From IMG/VR virus record IMGVR_UViG_3300027754_000037: a DNA stretch of 64,000 nt; one strand, 5' to 3'. The notes below the pieces were generated by a model. That model did not search any database, was not told where the DNA came from, and worked only from the letters and a program-made list of their open reading frames with translations. The DNA is from a virus (Duplodnaviria; Caudoviricetes). This document shows positions 21,743-35,441 of the stretch, one piece after another. Position 1 is the first letter of the stretch. Every line of letters starts with the position of its first letter. Both the position numbers and the translations under genes were made by a program.

Positions 21743-22354
21743 ATGATTACATTTCAAGAATATATGCAAATTGTCGAATTCACCGATCCATCACAAGCTG
21801 ACATAAGTGATATTAATCTTATCAAGCAAGAATGGGGATATTATTACGATTGGATTTACAACAACAACAAATACAGCGTTGGTCTTGAAAAAATACAAGA
21901 CCCCAACCCGTCTTGGCTAGGATTACCGGATGGAAGCGAGATTGAAGCGAATGGTTATATTGTGGAATTTGTGGGTCCCAAGGGAACAAGACCTACTGAT
22001 TTATCTGGAGGTACAAGTCTTGTAATTTATAAGCAAATGATGTTGGTAATTAGAAAGCTTATTGAAACCGAACATGTTGATTACTTGGCTTTTTCGGGCC
22101 AGACTGGAAAGATGGATCGACTTTATGACAGGTTTGTAAAGACATTTCTTGGAGATCGATATACTTGGTATAATTATCAAATTTTGATGAATAATACATT
22201 CCTTGATCAGATAGCGCTTAAGCATCCTTCTAGTGCAAACTCGGTTGCAGAAAAGTTGTCACAAACAAAAAAAATAAGGCAACAAAATTTGATGTTTCAA
22301 AAACAACAAGACGACAAATCAAGAATCCAAAAAAGAACTAGTTTTGCCGTATAG
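21743..22354 (+). CDS. Paralog 3 of the 3-member family
   Basis: MITFQEYMQIVEFTDP; core FVGP...IYKQMMLVIRKLIET.HVDYL.F. Confidence 0.65.
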   Translation: MITFQEYMQIVEFTDPSQADISDINLIKQEWGYYYDWIYNNNKYSVGLEKIQDPNPSWLGLPDGSEIEANGYIVEFVGPKGTRPTDLSGGTSLVIYKQMMLVIRKLIETEHVDYLAFSGQTGKMDRLYDRFVKTFLGDRYTWYNYQILMNNTFLDQIALKHPSSANSVAEKLSQTKKIRQQNLMFQKQQDDKSRIQKRTSFAV

Positions 22355-29397: not shown

Positions 29398-29688
29398 TTA
29401 TACAAATTTTTTGTCAGCCAACCTCTGAGCTTTCTCAATTTTGCCATTTACCAAAGCTTTGGAGAACTTTTTTTTATGAACTAGTTCTCTGACAGCGTCT
29501 ATCTCTTCGATTCCGATAGGACGGGAGAAGAAAATGCGGTGTTCTTCATTTTGATGTCCAATATAGCAGATGCTTTCTCCGCTTTCAGCATCGAGAATCT
29601 TGACAACATCTTTGCCAAGTCCTGATATTGCGTCTAATGCGTTTATCTCGACAATTTTTTTCTTTTCAATTGAATCTTTAGACTTCAT
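29398..29688 (-). CDS. hypothetical protein
   Basis: AAGGA RBS; ATG overlaps the stop of the 2H gene. Confidence 0.55.
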   Translation of the reverse strand: MKSKDSIEKKKIVEINALDAISGLGKDVVKILDAESGESICYIGHQNEEHRIFFSRPIGIEEIDAVRELVHKKKFSKALVNGKIEKAQRLADKKFV

Positions 29689-30068
29689 GACAATTCCTTT
29701 AATGCTACTTCTTGGACAACTCCCGAGAGTTGGATCGATGGTATTGGTGTCCAAGACTGCAAATTATTGCTATCTTTGGGCTTACCGCCAGCGACTCTGT
29801 TAAGAGCTACCGTTATATGCTTGGGGCTTTTTTTGCTTGGCACATCGGTTTCTACTTCAACAGCGATTACTTTATCACTTTGACCCACTTTTGTCACTAT
29901 CAACTTTGCATAATTTCCAAGTAGATCAGCGGCAGGTCCATCCACGGCTTTGCCAAGGTTGATAGTCATGTGGTGACAGATCATTTCCCATCCATCTGGA
30001 ACCTGCGAAACAAAGTGGGAAATTAAATTAGATTGAGAAAGTTCGTCCAAAACAACTGCTGTATACAT
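29685..30068 (-). CDS. 2H phosphoesterase (tRNA-ligase cyclic phosphodiesterase-like)
   Basis: Two HxT motifs: CHHMTINLG and PKHITVA. Confidence 0.7.
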   Translation of the reverse strand: MYTAVVLDELSQSNLISHFVSQVPDGWEMICHHMTINLGKAVDGPAADLLGNYAKLIVTKVGQSDKVIAVEVETDVPSKKSPKHITVALNRVAGGKPKDSNNLQSWTPIPSIQLSGVVQEVALKELS

Positions 30069-30069
30069 A

Positions 30070-30681
30070 TCAAGCACTTTCAATAAAAGAGTATTTGACT
30101 TTGACCTCAATCAGCATCTCAGGCATACCGATATGTGTGCAAATTTTATGTTTTTTAGCTTCTTTGGCCGTCAAGAAAATGTCAGCGTGACTTTTTTCGT
30201 GAATTAATTTGTCAAAGTAGCCTTCCTTTTGACCGCAATTTCTGGCCATGATTTGGAAAATTAATTTATTGAGTCGGTCGCATTCCTTGGCATCGGCTTT
30301 GATTTCCTCGTTTTTACCAACCGTGTTGGTTGCTGCATCGTGAAGCATCAAAGTTGCAATTTCACTCATGAATCTCTTTTGGCCTGTGCTGAAGAGGATT
30401 GCTCCAGCGCTCATAGCTTTACCTGTACAGATGGTGTAAACCGGAAGGCTACACTTTTCAACATGGGATATCATATCGAGACAACCGTAAACGCTACCGC
30501 CGTATGAGTCGATTAAAATTGGCACGAAGGGCTGTCCTGTTTGCTGTGCATCTTCCATTTCCTTACGAAAATCTTTGACGGCAATTTCCGTGAATTGCTG
30601 AACCAAAACCACCACAGGGTTTTCAATCAATTCGCTATGTTTGGAACGAATGCGTGGATCAACGATTAATTTTTTAAACAT
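30070..30681 (-). CDS. clpP: ClpP-family serine protease
   Basis: IDSYGGSV, CTGKAMSAGAIL (Ser), LMLHD (His), DIFLTAKEAKK. Confidence 0.85.
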   Translation of the reverse strand: MFKKLIVDPRIRSKHSELIENPVVVLVQQFTEIAVKDFRKEMEDAQQTGQPFVPILIDSYGGSVYGCLDMISHVEKCSLPVYTICTGKAMSAGAILFSTGQKRFMSEIATLMLHDAATNTVGKNEEIKADAKECDRLNKLIFQIMARNCGQKEGYFDKLIHEKSHADIFLTAKEAKKHKICTHIGMPEMLIEVKVKYSFIESA

Positions 30682-30964: not shown

Positions 30965-31351
30965 ATGGAAAAGAACCACAAACATTTGGTGCTCAACGCA
31001 TCAGTCAAAAGCCCCATCATCAGCGAGGAAGAATGCAAAAACTGGCTTATCAAACTCGTTGAAATAATTGATATGAACATTCTAATACCACCCGTAGCAA
31101 AATATTGCAACACGGCAGGCAACGAAGGAGTTACAGGGACCATAGTGATTGAAACAAGTCACAGCAGCATTCATGTGTGGCACAAGGAAGCTGCGCCTTA
31201 CATCAGAATGGATGTGTATTCCTGCAAGGATTTTGATGTGCAGAAAGTGATTGATTTTGTTCGAGAAACTATGAATGTTGTAAGTGGTGGTTACATTCTT
31301 CTAGACAGAAATAATATTATTCCTGAATGGACCCATATTGGATCATTTTAA
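30965..31351 (+). CDS. speD: S-adenosylmethionine decarboxylase proenzyme (SpeD/SpeH-type)
   Basis: HLVL, GVTGTIVIETSHSSIHVW (autocleavage E-S/T-SH motif), MDVYSCKDF; GAGG RBS. Confidence 0.8.
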   Translation: MEKNHKHLVLNASVKSPIISEEECKNWLIKLVEIIDMNILIPPVAKYCNTAGNEGVTGTIVIETSHSSIHVWHKEAAPYIRMDVYSCKDFDVQKVIDFVRETMNVVSGGYILLDRNNIIPEWTHIGSF

Positions 31352-31703: not shown

Positions 31704-32564
31704 TCAAGACCTTTTCTTGAGAATGTTGGAAGCCAATTCTGACATGTAGTGTGCAGTAGGAGTCTGTATCAGTTTGCTTATTGTTTCAATTGGATCGCCA
31801 AAACAAATCCTTTTTGGCATGGGATAGGTGTACATCGACTTGTTGAAAACTGGTGGCATGCCATGATCATAGTCGATGAACGGGGTGATTTTACTGTCAA
31901 TCATCGTTGATGATAGACCGTATGTGCCAAAAATATAAGCTTGATCGAAGACATCAGACAAATTCAAAGCCCATGCTAATTTGACAGTTTCTTTCCAAAT
32001 TGTTCTTTTGTTAATCAACTGGCGCAAAATCAAGGTTTCGGCAACCTGCAAAACCCTGTTGAAAAATTCAAATGTGAATTCCTTGAAACACATGATTCCC
32101 CCCAAGGGGACCCAATTTTTTAAGTAATATTCTTTGTTGTTTGGCATCACTTCCCAAAAATCGCCCGCCATTTTTTCTGCGTTTTGGAATGTAAAAGTAG
32201 CGTCAGGAGCGAAGATGCAGGCTCTGAATTGATTTTCAGGAAATGGCTGAAAACCTTGTTGACTTATCAAGACATGAGGATCGATAATCGTAAATTCATT
32301 TTTGATCTTGTTATTTTGTATGCAATGAATTAAAGAATATAATTGATTTAGTTTTACAAATCCCCTTTTATGGCCGATATTATTGTGTAAAAATTTATTG
32401 TTGTGATTGTTGATGTTTACGGGGAAAAAATACCCCGGATCATCCGTTTCTGCCACGGATATAATAAGATTATTTGCTTCACCCTGAGCAATAAAACTCT
32501 CTATCATCAATTCATATTGCCATTGATAATAGGTTGTGTTTTCGCTGCTGACAAAATACTCCAT
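31704..32564 (-). CDS. Glycosyltransferase resembling the plant peptidyl-serine galactosyltransferase / Hyp arabinosyltransferase family (GT96/GT95-like)
   Basis: N-terminal SSENTTYYQWQYELMIESF..QG pattern; IIDP at the DxD position. Confidence 0.5.
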   Translation of the reverse strand: MEYFVSSENTTYYQWQYELMIESFIAQGEANNLIISVAETDDPGYFFPVNINNHNNKFLHNNIGHKRGFVKLNQLYSLIHCIQNNKIKNEFTIIDPHVLISQQGFQPFPENQFRACIFAPDATFTFQNAEKMAGDFWEVMPNNKEYYLKNWVPLGGIMCFKEFTFEFFNRVLQVAETLILRQLINKRTIWKETVKLAWALNLSDVFDQAYIFGTYGLSSTMIDSKITPFIDYDHGMPPVFNKSMYTYPMPKRICFGDPIETISKLIQTPTAHYMSELASNILKKRS

Positions 32565-32583
32565 GTTTTTATTGAGTAACAGC

Positions 32584-32591
32584 TATAAATA
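32584..32591 (+). promoter_or_regulatory. T4-type late-promoter-like TATAAATA
   Basis: Exact match in the divergent intergenic gap. Confidence 0.4.
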
Positions 32592-32626
32592 TTTCCGCTT
32601 TTCCAAAGTGTTTTCAGGCGGCATGA

Positions 32627-32959
32627 ATGTCATATGAAGCATACAAACAAGTAGTCGATATCCTAAAACAAAGATGCAAGCTTGCGTTTCCGGTAAGCAT
32701 ACGCAGAACCAGTCTTAAAAATCTCGATGGGGATTGTTGCCTAAAAAACAAAAAATTCTACATTAGAATAGACAGCAACCTCAGCGAAGCTTCTGCAATA
32801 GACACTATTTTGCATGAATTTGCCCATGCCCGTGCGTGGAATCATCTACACGACTCTCTCAACCCCCACGAATTTCAGGACCAAGTTCATGATGCCTCAT
32901 GGGGAGTGGCATATAGCGAAGTTTATCAAATATACGAAAAGAATTTTTTAAAAAACTAG
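32627..32959 (+). CDS. small zincin-like (HExxH) protein
   Basis: DTILHEFAHA and HDASWG. Confidence 0.65.
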   Translation: MSYEAYKQVVDILKQRCKLAFPVSIRRTSLKNLDGDCCLKNKKFYIRIDSNLSEASAIDTILHEFAHARAWNHLHDSLNPHEFQDQVHDASWGVAYSEVYQIYEKNFLKN

Positions 32960-33567
32960 TGCTCGTGCGACACATTATTTGGAATATCATTAATGACTAT
33001 TTTCTTAATATTAGGAAATTTCGTTTTAACCTCAGGAACAAATTCCTTAAATTTAAGTATTTGATCTGGTCTATCTTCGTGAATTTCAAGTGTTTTATAA
33101 TTTGGGTTCAAGAGACCCATAATAAAATTGAATTTAATTTCAAAAGTGCTGCTGCCAACAGTTCCCGGTTGGCCAGTCAGGAAATATCCGTCCATTTTGA
33201 GGTCAGCATGATCAAGAATCTGCGTAATCCTGCGACGAAACTGGTTGGGACGACCCGTCATCAACACAACGGTAGCTTCAGAATCACTTAGATCATTCTT
33301 ACAGCTTTCAACTGACTTGGTGATATACCATTCTGGTCCCGGCATTTCAGGAACCAAGGGAGGCGACAAAGTTTCTAGCCTGCCCCACCATCCACGATGA
33401 GGCCAAGGATATCCAGTTATATCTTTATATAAAACCTTACCAGTATCTGAGTCTGGGGAATGAAACAAAGTGCCATCGAAGTCGTAGATGATCAATCTAG
33501 ACACATTAACTGCGCTCTCGTTCAGTCTATTCTGGCAATATTCCTTAAATCTTGATATTTTAGCCAT
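32956..33567 (-). CDS. HAD-superfamily phosphatase (Swiss-army-knife RNA-repair type)
   Basis: IYDFDGTLFHSP, WWG, LMTGR, IHEDR. Confidence 0.75.
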   Translation of the reverse strand: MAKISRFKEYCQNRLNESAVNVSRLIIYDFDGTLFHSPDSDTGKVLYKDITGYPWPHRGWWGRLETLSPPLVPEMPGPEWYITKSVESCKNDLSDSEATVVLMTGRPNQFRRRITQILDHADLKMDGYFLTGQPGTVGSSTFEIKFNFIMGLLNPNYKTLEIHEDRPDQILKFKEFVPEVKTKFPNIKKIVINDIPNNVSHEH

Positions 33568-35038
33568 TTTGCTTGCTTCTTAAGTCATTCCAGCGGTTGG
33601 TCATCAAAGTGCGCTTAATGGCATCAAATTCGCCACCTACTGGGGTTCTGCCCATGAACTTGAGATAAAGAGGGTTGATCTTCCTTTTGCCGTCATCTTC
33701 GCTTTGATAGGGAGAAAGATCACCGCTGTCAAAACTGAGGAAGGTATCCACATCGGGATTGTGGGCCTTTGCCATCTGCATCCAATCCTTGATCTTGGAC
33801 CTAGTCAAACCGCTGTGGGTTTGAACCATATCATAAAACTGATCGGGATCAAACTTACCTTTCGACCATTGGAATAACTTAACCAAGTAAACCACATCGT
33901 TAGCTTCTTGTTTAGACCAACCGCCTTGCAATAGAATCTGACGAACATCGTCAGGATTGTTGTTGCGCATGGTCCAAGCAGCCGACATCCATCTGTCGTT
34001 CCTGAGTTCTTCCGGCAAGTCGTCTCCGCTAAATTCAATATTCGGGAAAATTAAATTCAACAAACCAGAATCTGAAGCTGTCTTCATATATTTTCTGGCA
34101 TCAGTATCTGGATTTTCTAAACCCTTGACAAACTCTGTCTTGGCACAGCCCGAGGGCAATTTCCAGTCTTTGTGAGCTTTGACGACACTCATATACTTGT
34201 CTGGAAGTGAATTGCCTTTTCCAAAACGATTGAAGTGGTTTAGCAAGCGAAATGCCGTCATGGGATCTTCCTTCATGCGATCACCAAACTTCTCTCCAAC
34301 AGCCTTGATCTCACCAGACTTCAAATGATTGGCACCGCCGAATGGATCAATCAGATCGCTGTTGGGACCATCTTCGTTGGTCAAGGGAATATACATGGAG
34401 TTGATGGTGAAGTCACGATTTGATGCATCTTCCTCGATGTTTGCTGCGCTCATGGCATCATCTGGTGTGAAGTTTTTGCTTTTGGGAGACTTAGAAAGTG
34501 TCGAAAGAATAAAGGGTTGGCCATTCACCTCAGCCGTAATCTCCATTTCCTTGCTTTTTTTGTCCCACTTGCTGGCATAGAAAACTTTGTTCTTATTGCC
34601 AGCAACAGGCAGGCTGGAATAATTCTTGATAGCTCCGTGGCTGGGTTTGACCTCTTTGAAACCATTTTGAGACAGAATCATTCTGATTTCGCTTGGTGTA
34701 GCATCTGTGACCAGATCATAGTTGTTGGGAGTTTTTCCCATGAGGTGGTCACGAACTGCACCTCCTGTCAAATACAGAGATTTCTTTTTGAGTTGAGGTT
34801 CAACTTCGCCTTTGTTTTTTTCAATCGTCGTGTAGCCAACAGTCACCTTGTTGGAATTTGTAAATGCCTTGACGACCTTGGCAAGATTGGCATGATTGGA
34901 CTTATCAATCATGAATGGCGTGAATTCCTTATCGCCACCTTCCTTCTTTTGGAGCTTGATTTTTGCGGTAACGCCTGTGACTGGCTCCGCTTCTTTTTCT
35001 TCTCTAAATTTCAAATAATCTGAGAAATAATGTGCCAT
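33560..35038 (-). CDS. Class II CCA-adding / poly(A) polymerase-like nucleotidyltransferase with degenerate motifs
   Basis: LYLTGGAVRDHLMG, PNNYD, EDASNRDFTINSM, DPFGG..HL, EDPMT. Confidence 0.8.
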   Translation of the reverse strand: MAHYFSDYLKFREEKEAEPVTGVTAKIKLQKKEGGDKEFTPFMIDKSNHANLAKVVKAFTNSNKVTVGYTTIEKNKGEVEPQLKKKSLYLTGGAVRDHLMGKTPNNYDLVTDATPSEIRMILSQNGFKEVKPSHGAIKNYSSLPVAGNKNKVFYASKWDKKSKEMEITAEVNGQPFILSTLSKSPKSKNFTPDDAMSAANIEEDASNRDFTINSMYIPLTNEDGPNSDLIDPFGGANHLKSGEIKAVGEKFGDRMKEDPMTAFRLLNHFNRFGKGNSLPDKYMSVVKAHKDWKLPSGCAKTEFVKGLENPDTDARKYMKTASDSGLLNLIFPNIEFSGDDLPEELRNDRWMSAAWTMRNNNPDDVRQILLQGGWSKQEANDVVYLVKLFQWSKGKFDPDQFYDMVQTHSGLTRSKIKDWMQMAKAHNPDVDTFLSFDSGDLSPYQSEDDGKRKINPLYLKFMGRTPVGGEFDAIKRTLMTNRWNDLRSKQNG

Positions 35039-35092
35039 GTGACATCCCTAGCTGTAAGATTGTAAATTATTTAGCCGTTTATCCTGTATTTT

Positions 35093-35401
35093 TCAATCAT
35101 TCGGAGGACTTTGTAAATTCAAGAAGTAAAGTATCGTGCCTCCTATTACCATCAAGGCAATTTTCCATAGACTATCGAAAATTCTGCCCCAAATACCATC
35201 GACAGCTTCTAATTTTTTTTGCATCACATCTAAACTATGTTTAATGTCCTTGATTTCATTATTAATAATGAGAATATCTTTGTCAATACTCTCGTTTTTT
35301 TCAGTATGATTTTCTAAAGACTTAACGATGGTTGTGATGCGTTCATCGTGCCTTGTCACTATGTCAGAAACATCTGAAGTTGTTTTCTTGGCTGGTGGCA
35401 T
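35093..35401 (-). CDS. coiled-coil protein with C-terminal TM (holin/XhlA-like topology)
   Basis: Heptad-rich middle, terminal WKIALMVIGGTILYFL. Confidence 0.45.
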   Translation of the reverse strand: MPPAKKTTSDVSDIVTRHDERITTIVKSLENHTEKNESIDKDILIINNEIKDIKHSLDVMQKKLEAVDGIWGRIFDSLWKIALMVIGGTILYFLNLQSPPND

Positions 35402-35441
35402 AATTTTCCATTTCTATTAACCCGACCCTATATATTTAGTG

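Follow-up and report, generated by a model that had tools for sequence, protein, structure and literature searches.

A phage CCA-enzyme homologue with a degenerate catalytic core, conserved beside a HAD_SAK_1 phosphatase

The window (the 64,000-nt stretch of Caudoviricetes phage DNA analyzed here) encodes on its minus strand, at positions 33560–35038, a full-length 492-residue homologue of class II tRNA-nucleotidyltransferases (CCA enzymes) with a degenerate catalytic core. The product matches the PolyA_pol head domain PF01743 over residues 88–244 (78.4 bits against a cut-off of 23, 8e-22), and its PHROG assignment is tRNA nucleotidyltransferase. An AF2 model (pLDDT 87) and its structural matches place the protein in the head-neck-body-tail architecture of CCA enzymes: model residues 26–482 match 4x4w_B with a VIA Z of 24.4 over 360 aligned residues, and Foldseek pairs the model with CCA enzymes at E ≈ 1e-11. 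The Pol-beta-type nucleotidyltransferase (NTase) head, delimited by the Pfam envelope and the alignment (34307–34777, minus strand), harbors a family-specific insertion at about residues 125–160, and the helical, conserved neck, body, and tail (residues 276–492; 33563–34213, minus strand) align to the tRNA-binding part of CCA enzymes. Folded alone, the N-terminal region (pLDDT 72) gave no Foldseek match at E ≤ 0.001; within the full-length model, a portion of the same region can be aligned to the start of canonical enzymes.

To place individual residues, we used the Planococcus CCA enzyme 6ibp as the reference for a residue-by-residue alignment, taking the functions of motifs A, B, D, and B/A from earlier work (PMC7947759, PMC2910056, PMC8563995). 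In motif A (34715–34765, minus strand), G92-G-A-V-R-D is intact, and the metal-binding DxD reads N106-Y-D108, where N106 corresponds to the first Asp and the DNA, ccc aac aac tat gat, encodes P104-N-N106-Y-D108. Motif B (34391–34429, minus strand; D204 ... N207-R208-D209-F-T-I-N213) has N207 at the first Arg of RRD and is otherwise invariant. Motif D (34235–34270, minus strand; E257-D258-P-M-T261-A-F-R264-L-L-N267-H268) has T261 at the Arg of EDxxR; both the templating and the third Arg are missing, and D258 is invariant. A reading of this locus made from sequence only had reported just these three altered motifs, NYD, NRD, and EDPMT, beside intact GGAVRD and DFTIN; all of this is seen in the DNA and in the 6ibp alignment, but "three" is an undercount, since at least seven catalytic-core positions are lost relative to 80 canonical sequences and the sister clade. 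The further losses fall at I177, S182/S184, R267/F268, and the Glu-Arg pair of motif E, where G297 and C298 are found instead. Position 177, which on the alignment and the structural literature we take to be that of the third catalytic carboxylate, holds Glu throughout the sister clade (100%) and in 93% of canonical sequences but varies in the N-clade. The third-carboxylate strand and the basic/acidic (B/A) motif, a primer-positioning R-x-D/E element (PMC7947759, PMC2910056), have changed from Y-E-I-A-T-F-R-K-D to F-I177-L-S-T-L-S182-K-S184 (34487–34510, minus strand). Residues on the base and ribose side, namely R208, D209, T211, N213, and D258, are retained, and one acidic residue is specific to the clade: E166 (34541–34543, minus strand) is Glu in 74 of 76 clade members and Val in the sister clade and canonical enzymes.

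Whether such substitutions are conserved across a clade, a question raised by the sequence-only reading, is settled by alignment of close homologues, in which N106 and N207 are each found in 110 of 121 sequences and T261 in 106 of 121; T261 is conserved at 80–88%, with Ile or Val there in ≈15% of members. The 76 sampled leaves with degenerate proteins are monophyletic and sit within a set of canonical relatives from huge phages that have neighbor genes in common with them (HAD, SprT-like, and ClpP-like protease), and on this tree the active-site losses trace to a single origin. One Asp of the motif A pair is usually retained, as NxD or, in P0010, L032, and P0106, in the order DxN. Both are gone in NxN sublineages within the clade, and three NxN members that are also nonacidic at position 177 (L004, P0123, and L058) are left with zero canonical carboxylates. 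Across the clade, position 177 takes 13 different residues, whereas D258, R208, D209, T211, and N213 stay at 100%. Pairwise dN/dS is 0.05–0.09 for NxD and NxN pairs alike. Because the changes are clade-wide, the sister relatives are canonical, and dN/dS is this low even in NxN lineages, sequencing error and gene decay can both be rejected. The earlier argument against a single sequencing error holds up on further grounds: an independent assembly (L090, 97% identical) has the same residues at the altered positions, more than 100 homologues share them, and several substitutions need two to three base changes (R to AAT, E to ATT, R to TCT). The long members of the family, P0025, P0038, P0102, and L043, show no domain other than PolyA_pol.

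Compared with class II CCA-adding enzymes (PF01743; 4X4W, 8CBM, 6Q52, 1MIV, and 5HC9), the window protein has the same fold (Z 20–24, 340–365 residues aligned) and retains GGxVRD, the R-D-F-T-I-N core of motif B, the E-D of motif D, and R264, but lacks DxD, the third carboxylate, the B/A motif, the first Arg of RRD, the templating Arg, R267, and the motif E Glu-Arg; it also has an extra N-terminal peptide plus ≈65 residues and a head-domain insertion of ≈35 residues. Canonical syntenic relatives occur in sister huge phages (LR756511.1, 580692–582164; IMG/VR loci L036, L038, L045, and L053), are 33–42% identical, and have the same N-terminal peptide, head insertion, and neighborhood, including a downstream HAD_SAK_1 gene. 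They keep DxD, the third Glu, R-K-D, RRD, EDxxR, and the motif E Glu-Arg and are therefore presumably active CCA-adding enzymes. Other NTase families, in eukaryotes, include pseudoenzymes such as the catalytically inactive NTase module at the N-terminus of TUT4/7 and the DZF proteins NF45/NF90, which have lost the catalytic carboxylates and use a Pol-beta-type NTase fold for binding. In our literature searches, neither a phage class II CCA homologue described as catalytically dead nor any other class II CCA-enzyme pseudoenzyme came up.

The gene directly downstream encodes a 203-residue HAD_SAK_1 phosphatase (32956–33567, minus strand; PF10307, 56.5 bits against a cut-off of 25.6), and its ATG overlaps the stop of the NTase-like gene by 8 nt. 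HAD motifs I–IV are intact (D29-x-D31-G-T, T104, K145, and D165), with D29, D31, T104, K145, and D165 invariant in 20 orthologues. This gene lies directly downstream of the NTase-like gene in ≈30 loci, down to 30% identity, and is single-copy and adjacent in all four genomes that carry it. A complex prediction for the two proteins scored 0.00, below the mark, and counts neither way. The longer HAD homologues are multidomain eukaryote-type Swiss-Army-Knife RNA repair proteins, plus two HAD-only proteins, with no HAD–NTase fusion among them; a BLASTP hint of a degenerate NTase remnant in P0274 was unsupported by hhalign (probability 1.3%). Upstream lies a gene for a 102-residue coiled-coil protein with a C-terminal hydrophobic helix (35093–35401, minus strand; phrog_937), a position at which relatives hold a small ORF of 100–170 residues. 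A ClpP-like protease is encoded in the same conserved gene block as the NTase-like gene, and a 2H-phosphoesterase candidate at 29685–30110 has no Pfam match.

The protein begins with a 13-residue peptide, M-A-H-Y-F-S-D-Y-L-K-F-R-E (35000–35038, minus strand), a candidate T4-type capsid-targeting/cleavage signal with the family consensus M-K-x-x-F-x-x-Y-x-x-L-R-E. F5 and E13 are the majority residues, each reaching 100% across 10 sister sequences and 90% or more in the core of the N-clade, and residues 10–21 are modeled at pLDDT < 50. The capsid-targeting sequence of the T4 internal proteins IPI–IPIII is 10 residues long, with aromatics spaced by three ahead of a hydrophobic-x-Glu site for processing; the window peptide looks similar, but it has 13 residues, not 10, and its putative cargo is a 55-kDa enzyme homologue. 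The peptide pattern was compared with the description of the T4 sequence in PMC9026906.

The explanation that we favor, and consider probable, is that a pseudo-CCA enzyme has been kept for noncatalytic tRNA 3′-end binding within an end-healing pair, with CCA addition left to the host. In sequence and gene neighborhood, it is the counterpart of the CCA-adding enzyme found in T4-like huge phages beside the HAD_SAK_1 RNA-repair phosphatase. In one large clade, the residues for two-metal binding, primer 3′-end positioning, and base templating have been lost (D106N, a variable E177, R182S, D184S, R207N, R261T, R267, and the motif E Glu-Arg), with the whole fold and the ribose and base contact residues kept. 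Such losses within a retained fold make it most likely that this NTase-like protein no longer polymerizes nucleotides. It probably still binds a tRNA or tRNA-like 3′ end as a noncatalytic reader or holder and, coproduced with the still-active phosphatase through translational coupling, would form with it a pair that recognizes and heals damaged RNA 3′ ends, CCA synthesis falling to the host enzyme. Its conserved link with a HAD_SAK_1 phosphatase whose motifs are intact points to this RNA 3′-end healing context instead of the decoy or shield suggested by the sequence-only reading. That reading had left the choice between a dead protein and a neofunctionalized NTase; the dead branch is favored by the loss of at least seven core positions and by the strong purifying selection on NxN lineages, although conserved replacements, one remaining Asp, and E166 speak for the other.

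A neofunctionalized NTase, which we regard as unlikely, would still be catalytic, with a remodeled site (one Asp, Asn106, Glu166, Asn207, and Thr261) suited to another metal arrangement, nucleotide, or acceptor. The conserved N106, N207, and T261, the usually retained single Asp, and the new E166, on the strand adjacent to the lost third carboxylate, could indeed make up a remodeled working site: the substituted residues are conserved and not drifting, swaps from NxD to DxN keep exactly one Asp, E166 was gained in nearly every clade member, and the GG, RD, D204, and D258 positions are invariant. Phage tRNA genes without an encoded CCA are also in its favor; the complete relative G002 has 59 tRNA genes, with CCA encoded in none of 50 examined, so that G002 could benefit from a functional CCA enzyme of its own. 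However, NxN lineages, some of them nonacidic at position 177, are equally conserved (dN/dS 0.07–0.08), at least five basic residues for triphosphate, primer, or base have been lost together, and the Ile or Val that replaces T261 in some members is incompatible with a hydrogen-bonding template.

Somewhat less likely still is a capsid-packaged, injected protein selected for a role other than tRNA handling, either as a prohead core component or as an ejected decoy or inhibitor of a host defense factor that recognizes CCA-enzyme-like or tRNA-bound surfaces. The N-terminal peptide, with two aromatics three apart followed by L-x-E, similar to the T4 internal-protein capsid-targeting sequence, is consistent with packaging. 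Complete relatives have T4-type gp23 and, in G002 and G005, a gp21-type prohead protease (PF03420, ≈100 bits). The motif occurs at 17 ORF N-termini in G002 against 2.4 in shuffles; in the 144-kb record, a strict N-terminal motif scan matches only the NTase-like gene, and a looser scan adds three more. Location in a conserved block with the ClpP-like protease and the repeated loss of catalysis in this phage family also fit. On the other side, the gp21-type protease was not found in the 144-kb fragment (≈33% complete), a deep sub-branch of the degenerate clade is without the peptide, the N-terminal motif could serve another purpose, and RNA repair is the better fit for the HAD linkage. In a related and similarly doubtful scenario, a T4-type capsid-targeting propeptide would sit on the pseudo-CCA enzyme and, in many relatives, on the HAD partner too; the proteins bearing it would be packed in the head and injected with the DNA, acting in the first seconds as a noncatalytic binder of tRNA ends or defense factors and as an RNA-end phosphatase against host tRNA-targeting immunity; if true, this would be an ejected RNA-repair or anti-defense module built around a dead enzyme.

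We think it very improbable that the protein is a CC-adding-type enzyme with partial activity. The CC-adding enzymes of bacteria and eukaryotes likewise lack the B/A motif, have QRD for RRD in motif B, and differ in the first position of motif D (PMC7947759), but they are metal-dependent polymerases that keep DxD and the Arg of xDxxR and have the flexible loop deleted, whereas here DxD and the Arg are lost and a loop region of ≈19 residues between 184 and 204 (185–203) is present. That the gene is an artefact of sequencing or assembly, or a pseudogene in decay, has next to no probability left: nothing was found in its favor, and the comparative data already refute it, with an intact frame, the same residues in an independent assembly and the many homologues, multi-base substitutions, and a dN/dS of ≈0.07.

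The pseudo-CCA enzyme that we favor bears on how this family is read. The usual view of class II CCA-adding enzymes is that all of them are catalysts, and the routine annotation of a phage copy is a nucleotidyltransferase for tRNA maturation or repair; here, huge T4-like phages of one large clade hold the protein under strong selection with its active site dismantled, and the CCA-enzyme scaffold apparently has a second, noncatalytic use. Candidate roles for the scaffold without catalysis include tRNA-end reading, targeting of the repair phosphatase, and an injected anti-defense role, and the canonical and degenerate counterparts in related phages, with the same phosphatase partner, are a natural matched pair for testing scaffold function. 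Annotation therefore probably overstates phage tRNA-maturation capacity, as in a complete 533-kb relative with 59 tRNA genes, none of the 50 examined encoding CCA, in which the degenerate and probably dead copy is the only PolyA_pol-family gene.

The class II tRNA nucleotidyltransferase (CCA-enzyme) homologue is encoded by an ORF of 492 residues at 33560..35038 on the minus strand, and its product matches PF01743 (PolyA_pol head domain; 78.4 bits, residues 88-244) in Pfam and the tRNA nucleotidyltransferase family in PHROG. An AlphaFold2 model computed with 60 homologues as input is confident (pLDDT 87.2, pTM 0.80), and class II CCA-adding enzymes superpose on it along almost its full length, as found with Foldseek (8cbm_E, 6q52, and 5hc9 at E about 1e-11) and with VIA-align against 4x4w_B (Z 24.4, 360 residues aligned, model residues 26-482); the head, neck, body, and tail are therefore all present. 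By structure, the protein still belongs to the PF01743 superfamily, and the label of CCA-adding enzyme does not suit it because five defining motifs were tested and are not preserved. On balance, we favor the view that T4-like huge phages conserve this protein as a pseudo-CCA enzyme, whose noncatalytic role, probably the binding of tRNA 3′ ends, is exercised beside an active RNA-end phosphatase. A literature search found no published description of an inactive CCA-enzyme family of this kind.

The sequence-only reading had reported three altered motifs with GGAVRD and DFTIN intact, and a HMMER alignment to the Planococcus enzyme bears this out: N106 occupies the position of the first Asp of DxD (codons ccc aac aac tat gat, as had been read), N207 that of the first Arg of RRD, and T261 that of the Arg of EDxxR, with the other two motifs unaltered. 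Alignment with 80 canonical sequences reveals further losses. The Glu of the canonical Y-E-I-A-T-F-R strand, which we take to be the third carboxylate, is I177; the basic/acidic motif R-x-D is S182-K-S184; R267 and F268 of motif D are replaced by Asn and His; and motif E has G297-C298 in place of Glu-Arg. Two or three base changes are needed for several of these losses. In characterized enzymes, motif A residues bind the metals (PMC7947759), the basic/acidic motif positions the tRNA 3′ end (PMC7947759, PMC2910056), residues of the class lost here form the hydrogen-bonding half of the base template (PMC8563995), and the R-D of motif B recognizes the ribose (PMC2910056). By these roles, the charged residues for metal binding, primer-end positioning, and the hydrogen-bonding half of the template are gone, and the motif B R-D, the template Asp, and the scaffold are kept; G92, G93, R96, D97, D204, R208, D209, T211, N213, D231, G234, G235, and D258 are 100% conserved. 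Such a pocket could still accommodate a ribonucleotide moiety such as the 3′-terminal nucleotide of a tRNA and would no longer be able to activate a 3′-OH or hold a triphosphate with its metals.

A word-indexed search retrieved 288 homologues, the best 120 of which show 47-97% identity along the full length. The homologue alignment that had been proposed as a check establishes that the substitutions are conserved, with N106 and N207 each in 110 of 121 sequences and T261 in 106. The wider family comes from an exhaustive, profile-free search and from 73 IMG/VR loci. When 197 sequences were placed in a FastTree phylogeny, a single clade of 76 sampled leaves, with identities to the window protein down to about 35%, held every sequence with the degenerate set. 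This clade is nested within a huge-phage-specific family whose canonical branches (LR756511.1, loci L036, L038, L043, L045, and L053, and protein P0122) retain DxD, the third Glu, R-K-D, RRD, EDxxR, and the motif E Glu-Arg. The canonical relatives share with the window protein the family-specific N-terminal extension and head insertion, as well as a neighborhood of HAD_SAK_1, a SprT-like gene, a ClpP-like protease, and an upstream pair of roughly 440 and 160 aa; their sequences and synteny suggest that they are counterparts of the window gene in sister phages. Independent degenerate versions occur in other branches (loci L056, L059, and L061; P0143, P0155, and P0160), of types NxE with GRD but EDxxR kept, and DxH with T/G-RD; catalytic residues have therefore been lost several times.

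The strongest competitor, which we nonetheless consider unlikely, is a remodeled, neofunctionalized catalytic site. Conservation extends to the replacement residues, one Asp generally survives at one or the other position (DxN in P0010, L032, and P0106), and a clade-specific Glu, E166, lies on the neighboring strand in 74 of 76 members, so that a new site is possible. However, dN/dS between close pairs (0.05-0.09, Nei-Gojobori) is equally low in NxN sublineages (L029/L046, 0.074; L030/L033, 0.082), and L004, P0123, and L058, which are NxN and have a nonacidic residue at position 177 as well, thus have none of the three canonical carboxylates. Position 177 carries 13 different residues within the clade and is therefore unconstrained. 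Two-metal-ion catalysis at the canonical site cannot operate in at least part of the degenerate clade.

The phosphatase beside which the pseudo-CCA enzyme would act is a 203-aa HAD_SAK_1 protein (32956..33567, minus strand; PF10307, 56.5 bits), whose ATG is overlapped by 8 nt by the stop of the homologue gene. Its HAD motifs are unvarying in 20 orthologues, and long homologues are multidomain Swiss-Army-Knife proteins of RNA repair that combine kinase, 2H, and ligase-CPD domains. HAD_SAK_1 lies directly downstream in about 30 loci with degenerate, canonical, or very distant (30-33% identical) members, and is single copy and adjacent in all four genomes that possess one; no HAD_SAK_1 gene is found near the NxN lineages. 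Genome G003 has no HAD_SAK_1; besides the degenerate gene, it encodes a 411-aa CCA enzyme that is canonical throughout (L079:1387-2622). A canonical PolyA_pol protein of 995 aa (P0177, representative search) carries an N-terminal DUF2608 domain, presumably of the HAD superfamily, and would then be a natural phosphatase-CCA enzyme fusion. A jumbo-phage survey lists CCA-adding enzymes and SAK-type HAD phosphatases among RNA-repair components, and the parts consulted describe neither their linkage nor inactive versions (PMC7824862). Adjoining the HAD gene is a SprT-like/HExxH mini-metalloprotease gene (32627-32959, plus strand), a conserved third neighbor that also occupies this place in L001, L003, and L090. 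The same block holds a ClpP-like protease (head-maturation protease PHROGs; 30070-30681, minus) and an S-adenosylmethionine-decarboxylase-like gene (30965-31351, plus); complete relatives have, in addition, a T4-type gp21 protease gene at another location. Immediately downstream of the ClpP-like gene, small ORF P0270 (29685-30110, minus) has no Pfam match. Its H-M-T and H-I-T form a pair of H-x-T motifs like that of 2H phosphoesterases; if real, P0270 would supply a cyclic-phosphodiesterase step to the end-healing set.

Less probable still is that the protein is packaged or ejected and serves some function other than tRNA handling. The first 13 residues (consensus M-K-x-x-F-x-x-Y-x-x-L-R-E) are conserved in the degenerate and canonical clades, with F5 and E13 as the majority residue in 100% of the sister set and in no less than 90% of the N-clade core; residues 10-21 are modeled as disordered. 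Two aromatics three apart, then hydrophobic-x-Glu, resemble what we take to be the T4 internal-protein capsid-targeting sequence. In T4, residues 4 and 7 direct targeting, and 8 and 10 direct gp21 processing (PMC9026906). Complete relatives encode T4-type gp21 and the gp23 capsid protein, 17 ORF N-termini fit the pattern in the complete 533-kb relative G002 versus 2.4 expected from shuffles (maximum 8), and about half of HAD orthologues carry a similar peptide, making packaging and injection of the nucleotidyltransferase-like/HAD pair a candidate reading. The recurrent type, M-(K)-(T/S)-F-x-x-[FWY]-x-x-[LI]-x-E, also begins ORFs at 21743-22354 (plus) in the window and at 31726-32595 (plus) and 34570-35406 (minus) in genome G000, besides the 17 in G002, and may be the signature of a group of proteins targeted to the capsid (and ejected). 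We give a CC-adding-type enzyme very little credence. An artefact is next to inconceivable: the low dN/dS, NxN sublineages included, and the invariant core rule out both the sequencing error already argued against and decay.

The pseudo-CCA enzyme reading also bears on tRNA maturation. The IMG/VR record that contains the window spans 144 kb, at an estimated completeness of 33%; it has two tRNA genes, and its PolyA_pol gene is the only one. In G002, the degenerate gene is the only PolyA_pol-family gene, and none of 50 tRNA genes examined (59 matches) encodes CCA; with this gene content, degenerate-clade phages must depend on the host enzyme for CCA, unless the window-type protein is active after all. 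The 98%-complete, canonical-type G005 has 46 tRNA matches, with 2 of 43 genes examined flagged as CCA-ending, both doubtful. Rnl2-type RNA ligases are encoded elsewhere in all five genomes. Of about 90 phage tRNA genes inspected (L091-L094 of G002, L095-L097 of G005), nearly every one lacks encoded CCA and carries a T immediately behind the discriminator base, giving a uniform 3′ trailer. Among the G002 genes are also an amber-reading tRNA, with anticodon CTA, and a tRNA-like gene for which the call gives a four-base anticodon loop, or alternatively an intron.
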